Shown here: piece after piece, positions 5,756-55,738 of the stretch | Numbering within the stretch: position 1 is the first letter of the stretch | Layout of the letters: every line of letters starts with the position of its first letter | NCBI GenBank assembly: GCA_964547855.1 | Contig: CAZJPG010000006.1 | Location: 1,660-65,659, forward strand | Source of the DNA: an uncultured Gammaproteobacteria bacterium | GTDB lineage: Bacteria > Patescibacteriota > Patescibacteriia > Patescibacteriales > WJLG01 | DNA: 64,000 bases | Direction: 5' to 3' | Position numbers and translations under genes: made by a program | Notes under the pieces: generated by a model | Seen by the model: the letters and a program-made list of their open reading frames with translations, nothing else | What the model was told of the DNA's origin: nothing | Database searches by the model: none

Positions 5756-7453
5756 ATGGCCACACTTTATAGAAAATATCGTCCCCAGACATTTGCTGAA
5801 GCGGTGGGACAAAATCATATTAAGTTGACTCTGCAGAGCGAATTGTCCACTGGCAAAGTGGCTCATGCTTATTTGTTTTGTGGTCCTCGTGCCGTTGGTA
5901 AGACGACTTTCGCTCGTATTTTGGCCAAATCAGTCAATTGTTTGAATAGAAAAGATGGTGAGTTCGAGCCTTGCGATAAGTGCAGTTCCTGCCAAGAAAT
6001 AACAGCAGGAAGAGCTTTGGATATAATAGAGATCGATGCCGCTTCAAATACTGGCGTCGATAATGTTCGCGATAACGTCATTGCTTCTGCTCGCGTTTCT
6101 CCAAGTAAGTCTAAGTTTAAAGTCTTTATTATCGACGAGGTTCACATGCTTTCCATATCAGCTTTCAATGCTTTGCTTAAGGTTTTGGAAGAGCCACCGC
6201 AAAGGGTGATATTTGTGCTGTGCACCACTGAAACACATAAAGTCCCAGCGACCATAATTTCTCGTTGCGAGCGTTTTGATTTCCGCCGCATCGGGTTGTC
6301 CGATGCTGTTAAAAAACTTTCCCGCATAGTTAGTGAGGAAAAAATTAAGGTCGACAAGGAGATACTAGAATCGATAGCTCGCCAATCCGAGGGTCACATG
6401 CGAGATGCAGAGAGCATGCTTGGTCAATTAGTCGCCATTGGCGGACAAGAAATAACTAGGGAAGAGGCTGATTTGGTGATTCCTCGCTCGGCTATATCAG
6501 AGATCGTGAGATTATTGGAAAGTTTGGCCAAGAAGGATTCCTCTACTGCTATAGCCTTGGTCAACAAACTTTTGGACGATGGCGTCGATTTGGAAAAATT
6601 CGCGATGGATGCGATCGAGCTTTTGCGCAAGGTTCTGATCTATAAAATAAATCCAGCTCTTGGAGAGAAGTTGGGTTTGGATATTGGCGAGGCCTATGAA
6701 CTTAAGGTTAACGAGATCAAGAAGGAGTTGCCTGTCGAGAGAATAACTTCAATATTGGAAAGGATGATAAAGGCCAGAATTGAGATGAAGAATGCTTTCA
6801 TAACTCAATTGCCGTTAGAAATAGCTATTGCCGAGCTTTGTTTGGAAAATGCCCCGCAACGTCCATTTGCAACCCCTAGTATTGCTCCTAGAGTCACACC
6901 TCCGTCACCATCGTCTTTTACGCCGTCTACATTGCAAAGGCCGCCAGCGGCCAATATAGAGCCTCCGAAGTCTGAAGCGGCTACGCCAAGCCAACCTTCG
7001 GCCCCTGCTTCATTCGCTAATTCTTCGGTGAGCGCCAGTGATTTCTCTGGGCGCTGGAGTGAGTTTTTGGCCAAAATAAAAAAGAACAATCATTCACTTT
7101 CCTTTATATTAAAAACTTGTCAGCCAAGAGGAGTGGACGGAGCCAAAGTGTGCATGGCCTTTAAATATAAATTCCATCAGGATCGAGTCAATGAGGCCAA
7201 AATGAAAGAGGTGATTCAGAATACTTTACGAGAGGTTTATAACGCGGATTTGACCTTTGAGGCTATAATTGATGAGAATATGGAGATCGAGGGCGGAAAC
7301 GGCTCTTCTGCGGCGATGGCCGAGGTCAGTCCATCTTCGTCCGAGCAGGTCGATGCGCCTCCACCAGTTGAAGAAGCGGCCGCAGTCACGCCTCCTGCTA
7401 ATGATGTTATGAGTAATCTTTTGAAGACCTTCGGCGGTAAGGTTGTGGGATAG
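5756..7453 (+). CDS. dnaX: DNA polymerase III subunit gamma/tau
   Basis: MATLYRKYRPQTF..., Walker A GPRAVGKTT, Zn module CxxCxxC (CDKCSSCQE), DEVHML box, Pro/Ser-rich linker. Confidence 0.9.
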   Translation: MATLYRKYRPQTFAEAVGQNHIKLTLQSELSTGKVAHAYLFCGPRAVGKTTFARILAKSVNCLNRKDGEFEPCDKCSSCQEITAGRALDIIEIDAASNTGVDNVRDNVIASARVSPSKSKFKVFIIDEVHMLSISAFNALLKVLEEPPQRVIFVLCTTETHKVPATIISRCERFDFRRIGLSDAVKKLSRIVSEEKIKVDKEILESIARQSEGHMRDAESMLGQLVAIGGQEITREEADLVIPRSAISEIVRLLESLAKKDSSTAIALVNKLLDDGVDLEKFAMDAIELLRKVLIYKINPALGEKLGLDIGEAYELKVNEIKKELPVERITSILERMIKARIEMKNAFITQLPLEIAIAELCLENAPQRPFATPSIAPRVTPPSPSSFTPSTLQRPPAANIEPPKSEAATPSQPSAPASFANSSVSASDFSGRWSEFLAKIKKNNHSLSFILKTCQPRGVDGAKVCMAFKYKFHQDRVNEAKMKEVIQNTLREVYNADLTFEAIIDENMEIEGGNGSSAAMAEVSPSSSEQVDAPPPVEEAAAVTPPANDVMSNLLKTFGGKVVG

Positions 7454-7536
7454 GCTTGATTTTTTGTTTGTTTGACAAAACTATTCAAATAATCTATTAT
7501 TTTTTCAGCGCTAAAAGCGCGTTTTTGATTACGGAT

Positions 7537-7607
7537 TGGGAGATCGTCCAACGGTAGGACATCTGCCTCTGGAGCAGAGAATCATGGTTCGAATCCATGT
7601 CTCCCAG
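7537..7607 (+). tRNA. tRNA-Gln (anticodon CUG)
   Basis: Hand-folded cloverleaf. Acceptor tgggaga/tctccca with a U1:A72 pair and G73. D stem gtcc/ggac. Anticodon stem tctgc/gcaga with loop cuCUGga. T arm catgg-ttcgaat-ccatg. CCA is not encoded. Confidence 0.85.
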
Positions 7608-7660
7608 CATAAATAAAGCCACCAACATTCGTTGGTGGTTTTATTTAATATTTTGAGAAA
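7595..7660 (+). repeat. Direct repeat copy A: tRNA-Gln 3' end plus terminator hairpin
   Basis: ccatgtctcccagcataaataaagccaccaac...ttttatttaatatttt recurs 183 nt downstream. Confidence 0.85.
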
Positions 7661-7675
7661 GACATGGATTCGAAC
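7660..7675 (-). repeat. Inverted 16-nt copy of the tRNA-Gln T-arm/acceptor segment
   Basis: agacatggattcgaac is the exact reverse complement of gttcgaatccatgtct (7587-7602). Confidence 0.8.
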
Positions 7676-7777
7676 GAGGGGGTGAAGGGGGAGAAGCTCC
7701 CCCTTGTTTTGGGGGAGTATTGAGGGGTGGAAACCCCTCAAAGAGCGAGCTTGTGAGCGGGTTCGAATAGCGAAGCG

Positions 7778-7844
7778 CCATGTCTCCCAGCATAAATAAA
7801 GCCACCAACGAATGTTGGTAGTTTTATTTAATATTTTAAGAAAA
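7778..7844 (+). repeat. Direct repeat copy B: degenerate tRNA-Gln 3' end plus terminator hairpin
   Basis: Same ~60 nt as copy A. The hairpin loop is inverted (cgaatg vs cattcg). It is preceded by gggttcgaat with a 9-nt insertion, so no complete tRNA folds here. Confidence 0.8.
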
Positions 7845-7875
7845 GCCTTGACACGAACATTGACTTTGCGCAAGA

Positions 7876-7903
7876 TTGACAATGATATTTCATTTGATAA
7901 GAT
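7876..7903 (+). promoter_or_regulatory. Sigma70-type promoter for the downstream ncRNA
   Basis: TTGACA (7876-7881), 16-nt spacer, TAAGAT (7898-7903). Confidence 0.5.
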
Positions 7904-7909
7904 AAAGGA

Positions 7910-8228
7910 GTTCTTTGTTTAAAGTAATAATGCCATTGACCGGAAAGGCTGGAGGGCTGGTGGCCCTCATTAACAGGCGAGAGGGATAAACCCAGACCAG
8001 TAGCTAAGGTAGTATTGCATGTTGTTGTGATCTCGTAGCTTATAAAAAGATTTGGAAGGAGTATTTCCAACATCTTACCGAAGCTCTGGGTGTCGTTACG
8101 TATTATGGCTGCCGTTTTGTGTTGATTTATGACCAAAGCCATGATAGGCAGAACAGGCCAAGAATGACGCGGTACGGACAATGGTTCTCTTAGCAGTCTC
8201 CCTTTGATCACAGGGGAGACTTTTTATT
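7910..8228 (+). ncRNA. Unassigned structured RNA (~320 nt); an Alu-domain-bearing SRP RNA is one candidate
   Basis: No credible ORF on either strand. Bounded by its own promoter and a strong terminator (gtctccc...ggggagac+ttttt, 8195-8228). Long-range pairing ccattgaccg (7933-7942) with cggacaatgg (8175-8184). Hairpins at 7952-7968 (GAGGGC-UGGUG-GCCCUC), 8052-8070 and 8101-8146. Confidence 0.45.
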
Positions 8229-8315
8229 TGCCTTTTTTTGTTTATAGTGATAATTTATAACGTTAAATAAGGTTCTTTAAAATAGAAAATATCAGAATAG
8301 AAGGAGAATTTTAAC

Positions 8316-10505
8316 ATGAAGACTGAAAGAGATTTGGAAGATTTTTTTGCTTCTTGTGAAGAGAGCTCGCTGGTGTCTTTGGTTGAGATAGTGAAGGTGG
8401 CTAAAGGTCCTTTAGGCAAGCTATTTAAGTTTAATGGTATCGATTATGACGACTTGTTAAATCGTTTAATGATCAGGGTTGGTAACTTTTCCTATCAAGA
8501 CGATAATGGTGTATTTGCGGAAATAAAAAAGAGGGCGAAGTGCTGTGATCTTATATTTCCCAATAATGAAAAACATGTTTGTCTTTTAGGTAGCATACTC
8601 TCGATCTCTGAATCTGTGGCTTGTCGTGTGCTTGAGTCGATAAACGTGGATTGTCAAAAGCTGCTTAGTGATGTGGCTCGAGATTTCAATTTTGAAGTGG
8701 AGATCTTTACTTATCATAATCCTAAGGGGGATGAAATGAAGAAAGTGGTAGCGGTTGAAACAAAAAAAGTTGCCATTATCTCTGATTATGGAGTCGACTT
8801 GACTGAGAGGTATAAAAACGAAGAGCCAAAACCTTTTATCGGTAGAGAGAAACAGATCACTCGGCTGGCTAGAATGCTGGGGAGAATGAAAAAGAATAGT
8901 GTGCTTCTTCTTGGTGGTTCCGGTGTCGGTAAGACCGCACTAATAGAAGAGTTCGCTTATCGTATATCATCGGGGTCTGTGTCCGGGGCTTTATCCGGAA
9001 TGACCGTTTTTCTTTTGAAGCTCGATGGTGTGGGTGATCTGCCGAAAAGGTTTTCGGATATGTATGGTTTTTTGACCAGGATAATGGAGCTTTTCGATGA
9101 TCTTAATAAAGTCATTTTTGTCATGGACTGGGAGGAAATAACTTTGCCCGGGGCCAGCAGTGACCTCTTTACGACCTTTGACGTGGTCAATGTCTTGAGT
9201 CAGACATTTCGTGAATCGAAGGTTAGATTTATTTTGATCGGACATCCTGATTTTTATGAGGATTTTGTCGTAAGCTGTCCGCAAGTGACCGGCTTAATAG
9301 GAGTATTGAGATTGGAGGAGGCTACTGAGGCGGAGACCAAGCAAGTGTTGATGATCAAGAAACCATCCTACGAAAGTCATCATGGCATAAAGTTCACAAA
9401 CGAGGCCGTAGTGGCGATATTAAAGCATGTTATGAAAGGGGAATTCGAAGGAACTTGTCTCCCTGGTCGGGCGCTTGAGCTTTTGGATGATGTTGGTAGT
9501 GACTTTTCCGCTTCTAAAAGAAGAAAGATCGGCACGAAGGAGGTCGAGGCTTTTCTTAAAGATGACGATGCGGAACCGATCATTGCCGTCAGGGAACGGG
9601 GTTATGAGAAAAAGTTGCCTGAATTGGAGAAAAAGCTTAAGAGTCTGGTCATAGGACAGGACTATGCTTGTGAAGTGACAGCCGATGCGATCATGGCATT
9701 GAACGACCCGGAAAGACCGGTCGCATCTTTGTTCTTTACTGGTCCTTCTGGTGTTGGAAAGACGCTTTTAGCGCAAATTTTGGCTAAGACGCTTTTTGAT
9801 GATTTAGAGTGTTTTTTGCGCATCGATATGTCAGAATACTATGACAAGCACGAGGTCGCTCGCTTGATCGGTTCTCCTCCTGGGTATGTGGGTTATGGTG
9901 AAGATAGCAAAATGACCAAGCAAATGAAGAATAAGCCGAAATCGGTGATACTTCTCGATGAGATAGAGAAGGCTCATCATTCAATATATGATATTTTGCT
10001 TCAGATATTGGATTACGGCTATCTAACCAATGGAAAAGGCGAAAGATTGTCATTTCGCGAGGCTATTATAATTATGACCTCGAATATTGATCTACGAAAA
10101 AGCCGCCCAGTGGGATTTACGAAGGAGAATAATAGTGACGTTGGTCAAAGCGGTTTGGGCAAGGCCTTGCAAGATAATTCTTTTCGCAAGGAATTCATTG
10201 GTCGCATCGATCAGCTGGTTGAATTTTCGTCGTTATCCCATGATCACTTCTTAAAAATAATCGATTTAGAGATCGCCAAGATCTCTGAAACGGCAAAAAG
10301 AAGGGGATTGGCGAGTCTTACTTTTATGCCGGAGGCTAAGGAGTTTATCGTCGGTTGCAGTGATACCCGTGAATATGGAGCCAGAAACTTAAACCATGTA
10401 TTGCGCAGATTGGTTCGTGTGCCGTTGGGCAAAATGCTCGTTCACGGTGGACCGAAAGAGATGGTCACAGTTTCGGTCGATAATTCCGGTTTGGTATTCG
10501 TCTGA
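8316..10505 (+). CDS. ATP-dependent Clp protease ATP-binding subunit, ClpA/ClpC-like (two AAA+ modules)
   Basis: Clp_N-like repeats (ESVACRVLESINVDCQKL). D1 Walker A GGSGVGKTAL. D2 Walker A GPSGVGKTLLA and Walker B ILLDEIEKAH. VGF loop (RPVGFTKENNS) at the position of the ClpA IGL ClpP-docking loop. SD aaggag. Confidence 0.85.
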   Translation: MKTERDLEDFFASCEESSLVSLVEIVKVAKGPLGKLFKFNGIDYDDLLNRLMIRVGNFSYQDDNGVFAEIKKRAKCCDLIFPNNEKHVCLLGSILSISESVACRVLESINVDCQKLLSDVARDFNFEVEIFTYHNPKGDEMKKVVAVETKKVAIISDYGVDLTERYKNEEPKPFIGREKQITRLARMLGRMKKNSVLLLGGSGVGKTALIEEFAYRISSGSVSGALSGMTVFLLKLDGVGDLPKRFSDMYGFLTRIMELFDDLNKVIFVMDWEEITLPGASSDLFTTFDVVNVLSQTFRESKVRFILIGHPDFYEDFVVSCPQVTGLIGVLRLEEATEAETKQVLMIKKPSYESHHGIKFTNEAVVAILKHVMKGEFEGTCLPGRALELLDDVGSDFSASKRRKIGTKEVEAFLKDDDAEPIIAVRERGYEKKLPELEKKLKSLVIGQDYACEVTADAIMALNDPERPVASLFFTGPSGVGKTLLAQILAKTLFDDLECFLRIDMSEYYDKHEVARLIGSPPGYVGYGEDSKMTKQMKNKPKSVILLDEIEKAHHSIYDILLQILDYGYLTNGKGERLSFREAIIIMTSNIDLRKSRPVGFTKENNSDVGQSGLGKALQDNSFRKEFIGRIDQLVEFSSLSHDHFLKIIDLEIAKISETAKRRGLASLTFMPEAKEFIVGCSDTREYGARNLNHVLRRLVRVPLGKMLVHGGPKEMVTVSVDNSGLVFV

Positions 10506-10517
10506 TATTTTTCAAAG

Positions 10518-10553
10518 GGGCCCGATCCATTTTTGCGGATCAGGGCCTTTTTT
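10518..10553 (+). terminator. Intrinsic terminator
   Basis: ggcccgatcc...ggatcagggcc hairpin followed by tttttt. Confidence 0.7.
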
Positions 10554-10662
10554 AATATTTTAAAAGGTTATTTTAGTAAAAATATTAAGAAATTGTAATG
10601 ATTTAGGCGTTTTTACGTATATTTTAATATACGCTTGAGGTGGGGGCGTTTTTTATTTTATT

Positions 10663-12435
10663 ATGAAAAAAATGAAAGGAAGTTTTAAAAGAACCTTAAG
10701 GGTTTATTGGGACCAGATGAGCGGTTCGCGCTGGGTGTTTTTTGTTTTAGTCGCGATAATTATTTTTGGTACGGTTTGTAATGCGATCGTCCCTATTTAT
10801 TTGAAAAGGATCGTCGACGCTATATCTTTGACGCAGGACAAGGATATATCTTTTAAGTTGGCTCTATCTTCGTTGTTTATGGTCGGTGCTATAGAAATGG
10901 CACGAGTGATCTCTAATCGTGGCGCTGGTTTTTGGTATATAAGGTTTTTGTCGAAATTTATGGCCAAGGTGTCTAATTATAGTTTTCAATATCTTCATCG
11001 GCATTCTTTTTCCTTTTTCGCTAATAATTTTTCTGGAGCATTGGTAAAGAAGGTTAATTACTTAACGCGCGCCGCTGAAAATATTTTTGATAGTTTTGTC
11101 TGGGATTTTGTTCCCATGTTCACTAATTTATCTGTGATACTATCTGTTTTGTCTTTCCGAGATTGGCGTCTTGGCGCCGGGGTTTTTGTTTGGTTAGTCC
11201 TTTTCTTTACTGTTACTATTATTTTTTCAGGATGGAAATTCAAATATGATATTATTGCCAATGAAGCAGTCTCTAAGACCACTGGTTTTTTGGCTGACAC
11301 GATCACTAACTTCTCAAGTCTAAAATTGTTCAATGGCTATAATAGGGAGATCGGCGGATTCGCCGAATTGCAAGAGGATCTAAGGAGAAAGAATAATTTT
11401 GCTTGGAGCATGAATGAAGTTTTTAATGCTGTATCCGCTGTTTTTATGGTCGTCTTGGAAGTTGGCCTTCTTTGGATGTCTATAAAATTGTGGAAGAATG
11501 GGCTCTTTACGCCAGGTGATTTCGTCTTGATCCAGTCTTATGTGATAATAGTCGTTTGGCAATCCTGGCATTTCGGTCATTTATTGCGTAATTTTTATCG
11601 TTCCTTCTCTGATGCCGAAGAAATGGTCGACATCCTTAATACGACCCCTGATATTTTAGATATTCATAAAGCCAAAAAGTTAAAAGTAGATAAAGGTGAG
11701 ATCGAGTTTAGAAAAGTAGGTTTTTGTTATCATGAGACCCGCAAAGTGCTTAATGATTTTGATTTGACCATTAAGGCTGGTGAAAAGGTCGCTTTGATCG
11801 GCCCGTCTGGTGCCGGCAAGACTACTGTGGTTAAATTGCTTTTGCGCAATTTTGATTTGACGTCTGGACACATACTAATCGATGGTCAGGATATTGCTAG
11901 AGCGACCCAGGAAAGCCTTTGGTCTAACATCTCGTTAGTGCCTCAAGATCCTGTATTGTTTCATCGTACTTTGGCAGAAAACATTGCTTATGGTCGCCCA
12001 GAGGCAAGCAAAGAAGAGATAATCAAGGCATCGAAGCAAGCTCATTGTCATGAGTTTATTTCGAATTTACCAGAAGGCTACGACACTTACGTTGGTGAGC
12101 GAGGAATAAAATTGTCTGGCGGTGAGCGTCAGCGCGTGGCTATCGCTCGTGCCATTTTGCGTAATGCCCCTATATTAGTTTTGGATGAGGCTACCTCTAG
12201 CTTGGATAGTGAATCCGAGTCTTTGATTCAGGATGCCTTAGAAAAATTGATGAAAAATAAGACGGTCATCGTTATTGCTCACAGACTATCGACCATTAGA
12301 GAGATGGATCGTATAATATATATTGATGGCGGCAAGATCATGGAGGATGGGCGGCATGAGGATTTGGAGAAAAAAGAAAATGGACTTTATAAACATTTAT
12401 GGGAAATACAAGCCGGAGGATTCGTGAATGAATAA
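10663..12435 (+). CDS. ABC transporter, fused permease/ATP-binding protein (MsbA-like exporter type)
   Basis: 590 aa. Six-TM N-terminal half, Walker A GPSGAGKTT, signature LSGGERQRV, Walker B ILVLDEATS. Confidence 0.85.
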   Translation: MKKMKGSFKRTLRVYWDQMSGSRWVFFVLVAIIIFGTVCNAIVPIYLKRIVDAISLTQDKDISFKLALSSLFMVGAIEMARVISNRGAGFWYIRFLSKFMAKVSNYSFQYLHRHSFSFFANNFSGALVKKVNYLTRAAENIFDSFVWDFVPMFTNLSVILSVLSFRDWRLGAGVFVWLVLFFTVTIIFSGWKFKYDIIANEAVSKTTGFLADTITNFSSLKLFNGYNREIGGFAELQEDLRRKNNFAWSMNEVFNAVSAVFMVVLEVGLLWMSIKLWKNGLFTPGDFVLIQSYVIIVVWQSWHFGHLLRNFYRSFSDAEEMVDILNTTPDILDIHKAKKLKVDKGEIEFRKVGFCYHETRKVLNDFDLTIKAGEKVALIGPSGAGKTTVVKLLLRNFDLTSGHILIDGQDIARATQESLWSNISLVPQDPVLFHRTLAENIAYGRPEASKEEIIKASKQAHCHEFISNLPEGYDTYVGERGIKLSGGERQRVAIARAILRNAPILVLDEATSSLDSESESLIQDALEKLMKNKTVIVIAHRLSTIREMDRIIYIDGGKIMEDGRHEDLEKKENGLYKHLWEIQAGGFVNE

Positions 12436-55163: not shown

Positions 55164-55243
55164 GAGTCTCCTCTCAAAGTTGTTTAAAATGTTCGGTAAT
55201 TATTATAATATAGCATAATTTTAGCCAAATGTCAACACTTTCG

Positions 55244-55297: not shown

Positions 55298-55738
55298 ATC
55301 CCAGCAATTCCAGGGTGAACGAGCGACCGCTCGGCGTTTTTGCGTTGAGAGGAAAGTCCGGACTTTGAATATTTGGCCTTCTTGAGGCTGAATATGAAAG
55401 CGGCGGTGGATAACGCCCACGAGGAGAGATCCTACGGAAAGTGCCACAGAGACTATACTAACCTTTTGCCTAAAGGCAAGAGGTGAAAGGTGAAAAGAGA
55501 ATGGGTGTGAATATTGGCTTTTAGGATATCCTAGTCAGTCTTCGCTACCAATCTCGCCCCCGAGCGATCGGGGTGCCGTGGTAAACCCCGCCTAAAGCAA
55601 GGGCAAACTTGGGCCTTAAAAACCCAAAGGAACGTAGCCCGCTCGAGCCGACCGGTAACGATCGGCCAAGATAAATGGTCGCTCCCTTTACGAAGGGACA
55701 GAATCCGGCTTATAGCTCACCCTGGGATTATTGGGATT
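55298..55738 (+). ncRNA. rnpB: RNase P RNA (bacterial, type A-like)
   Basis: Universal GAGGAAAGTCCGG (CR-I), GGAAAGTGCCACAGA, and ACAGAATCCGGCTTA (CR-V). Terminal P1 pairing ccagggtga (55310) with tcaccctgg (55725). The exact ends are uncertain by about 15 nt. Confidence 0.9.

Follow-up and report, generated by a model that had tools for sequence, protein, structure and literature searches.

A candidate lineage-specific small RNA gene of about 320 nucleotides beside tRNA-Gln in a patescibacterial genome

The DNA considered here, which we call the window, is a stretch of 64,000 nucleotides (nt) from an uncultured member of the Patescibacteriota (assembly GCA_964547855.1), corresponding to positions 1660-65659 of contig C6 in the query genome G000 (1.24 Mb, 30 contigs, estimated to be 96% complete). 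Within it we focus on a unit of about 320 nt that lacks plausible open reading frames (ORFs) and lies between a gene for a glutamine transfer RNA (tRNA-Gln) and a Clp-like ATPase gene (window 7876-8231, equivalent to C6:9535-9890; positions below are those of the window unless a contig is named). We suggest, with a confidence that we would put at about an even chance, that this unit is an independently transcribed, lineage-specific small RNA (sRNA) residing on a small insertion linked to tRNA-Gln. Its product would most likely be a trans-acting or element-derived regulatory RNA. A preliminary description of this DNA had proposed an independent transcription unit devoid of ORFs at this place, and that core idea is supported in silico by the class of its promoter, by its terminator and by tests of coding potential; the view that the unit is neither a protein gene nor a leader is likewise supported.

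Promoter and terminator of the unit

The unit is delimited by the following features:

7876-7903, plus strand: sigma-70-type promoter with an extended -10 element (TTGACA at 7876-7881, 16-nt spacer, TG at 7895-7896, TAAGAT at 7898-7903)
7910-8228, plus strand: predicted primary transcript of about 319 nt, its start placed 6-8 nt past the -10 element and its end in the T tail
8195-8231, plus strand: intrinsic terminator, a stem-loop at 8195-8221 with 10 bp (5 of them G-C) and a 7-nt loop, then a T-rich tail, TTTTTATTT

The TTGACA-16-TAAGAT promoter pointed out in the preliminary description is present, agrees with the consensus at 10 of 12 positions and carries the TG extension in addition. When the whole genome was scanned for promoters of this class (TTGACA-N16-18-TAnnnT, with at least 4/6 matches in the -10 element), 135 sites were found, 111 of which fall in the 16.7% of the genome that lies outside ORFs of at least 150 amino acids (aa); 94 of these 111 stand no more than 250 nt upstream of a same-strand ORF of at least 60 aa or of a tRNA gene. 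Sites with the TG extension number 50, the one at 7876 included, and 42 of them are outside long ORFs. TTGACA-N16-18-(TGn)TAnnnT is hence the real promoter signature of this organism, the site at 7876-7903 belongs to that class, and the class itself is usable as a promoter model for a Patescibacteria genome.

The strong intrinsic terminator that had been described at 8195-8228 is also there, as a 10-bp stem followed by a T tail, and its pair probability in the full-length ensemble is 0.91; terminator-like sites are frequent in this neighbourhood, with 10 observed between 7400 and 8500 against 0.8 expected. Over the approximately 290 nt that separate promoter and terminator there is no plus-strand ORF longer than 26 aa. 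Both hallmarks of a stand-alone small RNA gene, a promoter of the organism's own type and an intrinsic terminator that closes a unit without ORFs, are thus found at this locus. In our proposal, transcription from the extended -10 promoter would begin near 7910 and stop at the terminator at 8195-8231, giving an RNA of about 320 nt, and the Clp-like gene downstream would be transcribed from a promoter of its own. Twenty public runs from eight studies (wastewater, bioreactor and digester) contain part of 7450-8450; all are DNA runs, none being recorded as RNA.

Two other promoters of the genome deserve mention. The surroundings of the -35 element (ATTGACAATGA) and the initial transcribed bases (TTTAAAGTAATAA) of the 7876 promoter recur in a sister promoter within G000:C4:59283-59625; about 150 nt beyond that promoter (C4:59332) lies a 38-aa ORF rich in lysine and arginine, and no RNA-like region. 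The word near the start site that is common to both promoters may be a regulatory site. A further promoter of the same class, at window 55207-55235 on the minus strand, adjoins the RNase P RNA gene and points away from it, the next ORF of at least 60 aa being 379 nt off, and is a candidate for driving another small RNA or a small ORF.

tRNA-Gln 3'-end copies on both sides of the unit

The surroundings of the unit are marked by partial copies of the neighbouring tRNA gene:

7537-7608, plus strand: tRNA-Gln(CUG), identified by Rfam search and tRNA call
7778-7858, plus strand: left boundary, consisting of a second tRNA-Gln 3' end (7778-7795), trailer and terminator hairpin, a direct repeat of 7595-7675
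8181-8202, plus strand: right boundary, a degenerate 3' part of tRNA-Gln (T-arm and acceptor) reading ATGGTTC-N8-GTCTCCC, in register with 7584-7605

A repeat search gives the direct repeat 7595-7675 / 7778-7858 a length of 81 nt and an identity of 85%, and terminator-like hairpins occur on both strands at 7802-7821. The copy at the right boundary overlaps the closing helix of the predicted RNA and the 5' arm of its terminator; the pattern ATGGTTC-N8-GTCTCCC, which was chosen post hoc, occurs in just two places in the 64 kb, with 0.00 expected. Insertions at tRNA genes leave copies of the tRNA 3' end, as is typical of tRNA-linked integration, and the bracketing of the unit by tRNA-Gln 3'-end copies would fit that pattern. 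With these repeats as its limits, the unit sits within a module about 385 nt long that has a tRNA-Gln 3'-end copy at either end, in a hot spot of insertion and duplication, and we read the RNA as one of island type rather than housekeeping type.

Additional rearrangements were seen around tRNA-Gln genes and in this region. A tandem duplication at G000:C1:3400-3600 takes in the 5' part of tRNA-Gln(UUG) together with some 80 nt of upstream sequence, and adds to the evidence that tRNA-Gln loci are hot spots of rearrangement. An 18-nt inverted repeat (7835-7852 / 9543-9560, 94% complementary) joins the stretch upstream of the promoter to the interior of the Clp-like gene, and is by a rough estimate somewhat rarer than chance or near chance level, while a 15-nt direct repeat (8044-8058 / 8326-8340) is, again as a rough estimate, at or near chance level. 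The idea that the 3' part of the unit is a tRNA-Gln pseudogene was rejected, gapped local alignments to either tRNA-Gln scoring at the level of shuffled sequences (107/500 and 302/500 shuffles reach the score); what stands is the ungapped match of two heptamers at the right boundary.

Predicted fold

The minimum-energy fold of the RNA comprises these elements, all on the plus strand:

7932-7942 with 8175-8185, plus strand: closing helix, pair probability 0.99
7949-7976, plus strand: 5' hairpin, containing GAGGGC-UGGUG-GCCCUC (7952-7968), pair probability 0.93-0.97
7983-7993, plus strand: small hairpin GGG-AUAAA-CCC, pair probability 0.91
7997-8089, plus strand: middle domain of the predicted fold, with stem 7997-8010 / 8077-8089 and hairpins 8014-8031 and 8047-8076
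8090-8170, plus strand: 3' domain, with stem 8090-8097 / 8163-8170, a long hairpin at 8101-8146 and another at 8147-8159, pair probability 0.92-0.97

The closing helix that had been drawn by eye between 7933-7942 and 8175-8184 is recovered by this fold as 7932-7942 / 8175-8185, and so are the hairpins that had been noticed at 7952-7968, 8052-8070 and 8101-8146; together with the small hairpin at 7983-7993, all of these have pair probabilities of at least 0.9. The RNA would accordingly be modelled as a closed four-branch structure, in which the closing helix surrounds the pair of 5' hairpins, the middle domain and the 3' domain. Ensemble diversity, measured as mean base-pair distance, is low (28.9 versus 65.6 +/- 19.6), and only 9 of 300 native windows of matched G+C content (GC) are as low, which places the unit in the lowest 3%. 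The GC of the unit is 0.43-0.45, as in coding DNA, and that of the spacers at 8200-8399 and 10500-10699 is 0.29-0.33. Compared with dinucleotide shuffles, the folding energy has a z-score of -2.17, weakly above chance. The structural evidence is weaker than that from the promoter, and mixed: the predicted fold is well defined, and its energy unexceptional.

Variation among strains

Metagenome contigs from four public DNA runs permitted a comparison between strains. In run X3, the sole contig that covers 7724-8338 differs from the window at 8305 only, so that none of the 353 unit positions is changed, whereas the coding flanks show 6 differences in dnaX (7300-7422) and 8 in the Clp-like gene (8316-8700); of these 14 changes, spread over 508 nt, 13 fall on third codon positions (13/169). 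The difference between unit and coding sequence has a Fisher p of 6e-4 when all coding sites are counted and of 3e-7 for third positions. In run X8, where 248 bases of the unit are covered, it has 5 substitutions and one gap, against changes at 7 of 51 third positions of dnaX (p = 0.001), the comparison with all coding sites giving p = 0.23. The four X8 changes that were listed fit the predicted fold, with 7968 C>T and 8048 A>G making G-U pairs and 8021 G>T and 8209 lying in loops; as a rough estimate, chance alone would yield four compatible changes in about one case out of seven. In run X10 there is no cover from 7911 to 8380, and run X1 offers one joint from 7610 to 8462, in which one side has just 28 letters, in surroundings of low likeness, and which we attribute to a repeat or to another organism. 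We take these data to mean that the unit is probably under some constraint. A recent sweep would give the same picture.

An orphan unit, and the possibility of a relic

Several results weigh against a functional RNA, and they are best considered together. BLAST of the unit against 41 genomes (G000 and 40 relatives of the same order, among them four congeners with DnaX 64-78% identical) matched the query genome alone, and in 400 genomes of the class it returned only matches of 39 nt and 23 nt, with per-genome E values of 3e-4 and 8e-4, which over that many genomes are at chance level. A covariance model of 7997-8170, built from the single sequence with 57 pairs, matched the query alone among 101 genomes at E up to 1. 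The unit has no match in phage records, and in plasmid records there is only a 38-nt chance match (Clostridium plasmid, E = 0.03); a 27-mer taken from it found nothing in metagenome contigs, and no diverged homologue turned up from which to build a covariation alignment. In G003, the most closely related congener that is informative here, tRNA-Gln(UUG), a short spacer, a terminator and the Clp-like gene follow one another with no RNA body between. The folding energy is ordinary: among 429 native windows of this genome with matched GC, 45 are at least as stable. Finally, the argument from strain variation rests on unphased, low-depth unitigs (depth 3-6), and in X8 the rest of the non-coding stretch (7454-7739) shows no variation either, which means that low diversity is not particular to the unit.

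Other searches lead to the same conclusion regarding its distribution. Searches of the query genome itself with blastn and tblastx gave no paralogue of 7900-8230, and the same two programs found nothing when the unit was compared with all the collected loci; the unit is absent from the syntenic site in G003, G002, G006, G010 and G005. Spacers behind dnaX and tRNA-Gln at 20 or more Patescibacteria loci are unrelated to the unit and to each other, and hold no Rfam family but tRNA. By these comparisons the unit is an orphan, specific to a species or a strain cluster.

The most serious alternative, which we consider possible although on the unlikely side, is that the unit is a functionless relic. 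The tRNA-Gln flank would have been reshaped many times over by insertions, duplications and exchange between the two tRNA-Gln loci, and the 385-nt module would be what is left of a decayed integrated element or of an old tRNA-Gln transcription unit, its promoter and terminator surviving while any RNA made from it would have no function. The tRNA-Gln 3'-end copies that bound the unit are in keeping with such an origin, as are the unexceptional folding energy and the fact that no related genome searched has a homologue. The comparison with G003 points the same way. There, sequence homologous to the terminator tail and to the Clp-like promoter belongs to the terminator region of tRNA-Gln(UUG; TTG in DNA letters); the RNA body is missing, and a partial copy of the tRNA 3' end (AATCCATGCTT) stands between tRNA and terminator. 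A relic should drift, yet none of the 353 unit positions differs in X3, where the flanking genes differ at 13/169 third codon positions. Its promoter is near-consensus and its terminator intact; its GC is that of coding DNA and not of spacers, its predicted fold is unusually well defined, and the searches found no residual similarity to any protein or DNA.

The neighbouring 120-nt element

Immediately behind the tRNA gene there is a second object of interest:

7655-7777: element of about 120 nt between the tRNA and its duplicated end, conserved and multi-copy

Further copies of it occur in the genome at C1:3192-3311 (89%, behind tRNA-Gln(UUG)) and C2:83929-84039 (70%, behind tRNA-Lys). By BLAST, six of the 10 other genomes of the family carry it (further copies at loci L145-L155), and none of 50 genomes drawn from the order's other families does. 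Of 13 copies, eight stand right behind a tRNA gene and share its orientation; the eight tRNA genes concerned have six amino-acid identities (Gln-CUG, Gln-UUG, Lys, Ser, Ala, Leu and Arg). In all eight, the left arm of the element is the reverse complement of the T-loop and the 3' strand of the T-stem of the very tRNA that precedes it, a match that extends to the TTCGATT variants of the Leu and Arg tRNAs (compensatory columns 39/162). The right end repeats the T-loop and the acceptor 3' strand of the tRNA and its trailer, with a mini-hairpin of the GCGAAGC type between in most copies. Two core hairpins are conserved, with one compensatory change, and two loci contain tandem units. The element corresponds to no Rfam family, the best score being that of Clostridiales-2 (19.3 bits against a cut-off of 58.6 bits). 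It may be a new tRNA-end-copying element, mobile or structured, and is probably a better lead than the unit itself for a new family of RNAs or mobile elements.

The unit is not a diverged copy of this element: a profile hidden Markov model (HMM) built on 10 copies gave no match within 7790-8320, even with all filters off and E values up to 10 admitted, and the likeness of the hairpin at 7952-7968 to the GAGGGG-TGGAAA-CCCCTC hairpin of the element is therefore unsupported. A bolder proposal, and in our opinion an improbable one, is that the 320-nt RNA is functional cargo, e.g. a guide or a regulator, carried by a miniature module whose insertion target is the 3' end of tRNA-Gln genes and which shares its biology with the 120-nt element; this would make it a new class of RNA under purifying selection, and the two together would represent an undescribed non-autonomous system of tRNA-end copying in Patescibacteria.

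A leader of the Clp-like gene

The gene downstream of the unit is the following:

8316-10505, plus strand: 729-aa ATPase of ClpA/B/C type, here termed the Clp-like gene (AAA_2, ClpB_D2-small, AAA_lid_9)

It is conceivable that the unit is a long 5' leader or attenuator of this gene, with the promoter at 7876 driving the gene and the terminator at 8195 being regulated. The unit is on the same strand and immediately upstream of the gene, and riboswitches and T-boxes have a similar layout, their promoter being followed by a structured region and then by a terminator. We nevertheless find this explanation very doubtful. Searches at E up to 10 gave no cis-regulatory Rfam family, and no alternative anti-terminator pairing was seen, the terminator having a pair probability of 0.91. 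The only orthologue found, that of G003, does without the putative leader, yet it keeps the 100-nt region after the terminator: similarity between the window and G003 is 75% over 116 nt, from 8214 in the T tail through the start of the Clp-like gene, and the shared region includes an extended -10 element, TGnTAATTT, located at 8248-8256 downstream of the terminator. This shared post-terminator region means that the Clp-like gene has its own promoter and that the RNA body lies outside its conserved upstream region. With such a promoter, and with G003 lacking the RNA, the leader hypothesis loses its footing.

The Clp-like gene is accessory. Among 10 family members its orthologue is present in G003 only (58-62% identity; interrupted by TGA and TAA), and neither a protein query nor a two-sequence alignment revealed further orthologues among species-representative genomes; two ordinary Clp ATPases (~900 aa) occur in all the genomes compared. 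In both genomes the gene sits just behind tRNA-Gln, the anticodons differing (CUG here, UUG in G003). The first ~170 residues of the protein match no Pfam family, and its PADLOC matches (PDC-M37B, DolB) span the AAA_2 domain only and are uninformative on the RNA. A target prediction by duplex energy over 951 start regions was uninformative: the Clp-like gene came out at rank 553, and the predicted duplexes were too long to be plausible.

Coding potential

One further ORF overlaps the unit on the opposite strand:

7828-8211, minus strand: ORF of 127 aa, judged spurious, starting inside the terminator hairpin

We regard as very improbable, more so than a leader, the possibility that the unit encodes one or more very small proteins, whether from a 19/24-aa frame at 7915/7930-7989, from frames of 26 aa (8052) and 24 aa (8119), or from the 127-aa ORF if that were real. 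Small ORFs do occur inside the unit, and the sister promoter at C4:59332 has its 38-aa basic ORF downstream instead of an RNA-like region. The Shine-Dalgarno-like motif AAAGGAG (7906-7912) stands 2 nt from a TTG and 17 nt from an ATG, however, and neither spacing is usable. As for the 127-aa ORF, its codon-usage log-odds is -0.008, amid the values for 291 similarly long spurious nested ORFs (-0.025 +/- 0.079) and far below that of long ORFs (+0.196); it has no Pfam family, and no homologue was found in a protein search of 5.8 billion clusters or in the 40 relatives. By its sequence properties it behaves like a chance ORF. The preliminary description had dismissed it and had seen no plausible ORF in the gap, and both judgements hold, the plus-strand maximum being 26 aa and the minus-strand frame having a codon score of the spurious type and neither family nor homologue.

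SRP RNA and other housekeeping RNAs

The signal recognition particle (SRP) RNA was the identity that had been tentatively assigned to the unit, and it can be dismissed. An Rfam search, as the preliminary description had recommended, detected no SRP RNA in the window at gathering score and nothing credible at 7900-8230 even at E up to 10. Neither RF00169 nor RF01854 matches anywhere in the genome, and each is found in 0 of 41 genomes (the query and its 40 relatives), while the SRP RNA model searches were positive in 12 of 14 control genomes. Domain IV of SRP RNA, or helix 8, has a GNAR tetraloop on a short stem, flanked by conserved AGG / AGCA loop residues. Regular-expression scans for this motif over both strands of the whole genome, at three relaxations (14, 234 and 7 hits), placed none at 7876-8231 among the matches listed, in accordance with the earlier failure to find a helix-8 GGAA tetraloop by inspection. 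The resemblance that had been seen between GAGGGC-UGGUG-GCCCUC plus GGG-AUAAA-CCC and the SRP Alu domain, and that between another segment and the 3' strand of 4.5S RNA, were borne out by no tool.

The protein partners are absent as well. The genome has 0 candidates for the Ffh M domain (PF02978), merely a 16.9-bit P-loop match to the SRP54-type GTPase (PF00448), 0 matches to ffh (TIGR00959) and merely 16.4 bits for ftsY (TIGR00064); each of these four profile searches was positive in 14 of 14 control genomes, and SecY, as a positive control, was found in the genome with E = 9e-103. A tblastn search with an FtsY-type fragment from another genome of the phylum found ATP-binding cassette (ABC) ATPases only, and PF00448 was detected in none of 41 genomes of the order and in just 2 of the 201 sampled from the phylum. 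An SRP RNA is not expected here, because there is no Ffh for it to bind. The SRP pathway is thus missing from this genome, which lacks Ffh, FtsY and SRP RNA, and this agrees with published statements on Parcubacteria and CPR (candidate phyla radiation) bacteria: according to Nelson and Stegen (2015; PMC4508563), ffh and ffs both went undetected in every Parcubacteria genome, and according to Moreira et al. (2021; PMC8080830), many CPR bacteria are without two SRP subunits. A clean SRP RNA elsewhere in the genome, which the preliminary description had envisaged as an argument against its assignment, was found nowhere, because the pathway itself is missing. The absence of an Rfam match, of the domain-IV motif among the matches listed, of Ffh and FtsY and of conservation in congeners jointly rule out SRP RNA as the identity of the unit, as far as sequence data go.

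For other housekeeping RNAs the outcome is similar. The 6S RNA model RF00013 has no match at the locus or in the whole genome, and the predicted fold is a multi-branched four-way junction and not a rod of the 6S type, so that 6S RNA was rejected. Transfer-messenger RNA (tmRNA) and RNase P RNA were rejected too, both being located elsewhere:

Window 55311-55728: RNase P RNA, the sole Rfam match in the window besides tRNA
G000:C7:30401-30798: tmRNA, by model match, elsewhere than the unit

SRP RNA genes sit beside dnaX in several bacteria with Bacillus-type genomes. That the unit is nonetheless a highly diverged SRP or 6S RNA, as its proximity to dnaX, its size close to that of large SRP RNAs and the lack of matches to RF00169, RF01854 and RF00013 elsewhere in the genome might suggest, is scarcely credible given that Ffh, its M domain and FtsY are absent while SecY is present (in agreement with the literature, PMC4508563 and PMC8080830), that no domain-IV motif lies in the region among the matches listed, that the predicted fold is multi-branched and not rod-like, and that such an RNA would be expected in congeners, where the unit is absent.

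Genomic context

The remaining features around the unit are these:

5756-7453, plus strand: dnaX (Pfam DNA_pol3_delta2 and related families)
7472-7500, plus strand: promoter TTGACA-17-TATTAT between dnaX and tRNA-Gln(CUG), from the promoter scan
Downstream of the Clp-like gene, plus strand: an ABC exporter followed by an HI0933-like flavoprotein, both from Pfam

Among the tRNAs that ARAGORN reported in the 30 contigs is a tRNA-Ile (anticodon UAU, C8:15225-15298); tRNAs for Asp, Asn, His and Tyr are missing from its list, which may merely reflect gaps in the assembly.

Implications

The locus should not carry an SRP RNA label in the annotation of this genome, and the organism joins the bacteria that live without Ffh, FtsY and 4.5S RNA, as already reported for Parcubacteria. 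Should the unit prove to be transcribed and functional, it would join a very short list of candidate regulatory RNAs in Patescibacteria, whose genomes are of about 1 Mb and in which hardly any RNA regulation has been described. If our reading of the unit as an sRNA on a tRNA-Gln-linked insertion is true, it would imply that even such small genomes gain lineage-specific RNA genes at tRNA-linked hot spots.

Comparison with known systems

With SRP RNA (RF00169/RF01854) the unit shares the nature of a non-coding gene that has its own promoter and terminator, a length near that of large SRP RNAs, a predicted closing helix that joins the 5' and 3' regions, and a position near dnaX. It differs in having no model match and, among the matches listed, neither a GNAR-tetraloop nor a symmetric-loop motif; its genome offers no partner in the form of Ffh or FtsY, and the unit is not conserved even at the genus level. 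6S RNA (RF00013), which is undetected in this genome, is likewise a stand-alone structured RNA of the abundant type with paired ends; unlike it, the unit has no model match, would form a four-way junction in place of a rod with a central bubble, and is not conserved in relatives. The attenuators of riboswitch and T-box systems present the same succession of promoter, structured RNA, intrinsic terminator and gene on one strand, whereas the unit has no Rfam family, the gene downstream has a conserved promoter of its own, and the orthologue of that gene is without a leader.

The unit can also be compared with the orphan sRNAs borne by islands and prophages, of which island-encoded examples have been described in Salmonella. 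At about 320 nt the unit is longer than typical base-pairing sRNAs and its predicted fold more elaborate; it comes from a patescibacterial host, has no known target and no chaperone context, and is known here from sequence alone. Literature searches directed at SRP turned up no work on sRNAs in Patescibacteria, no search having been aimed at sRNAs in general. What the unit has in common with these sRNAs is a short length of DNA without ORFs, a strong promoter of the sigma-70 type, an intrinsic terminator and a distribution specific to a strain or species, and, beyond the unit itself, its setting in accessory DNA beside a tRNA gene, with partial tRNA 3'-end copies on its flanks and an accessory gene, the Clp-like ATPase, as its neighbour.

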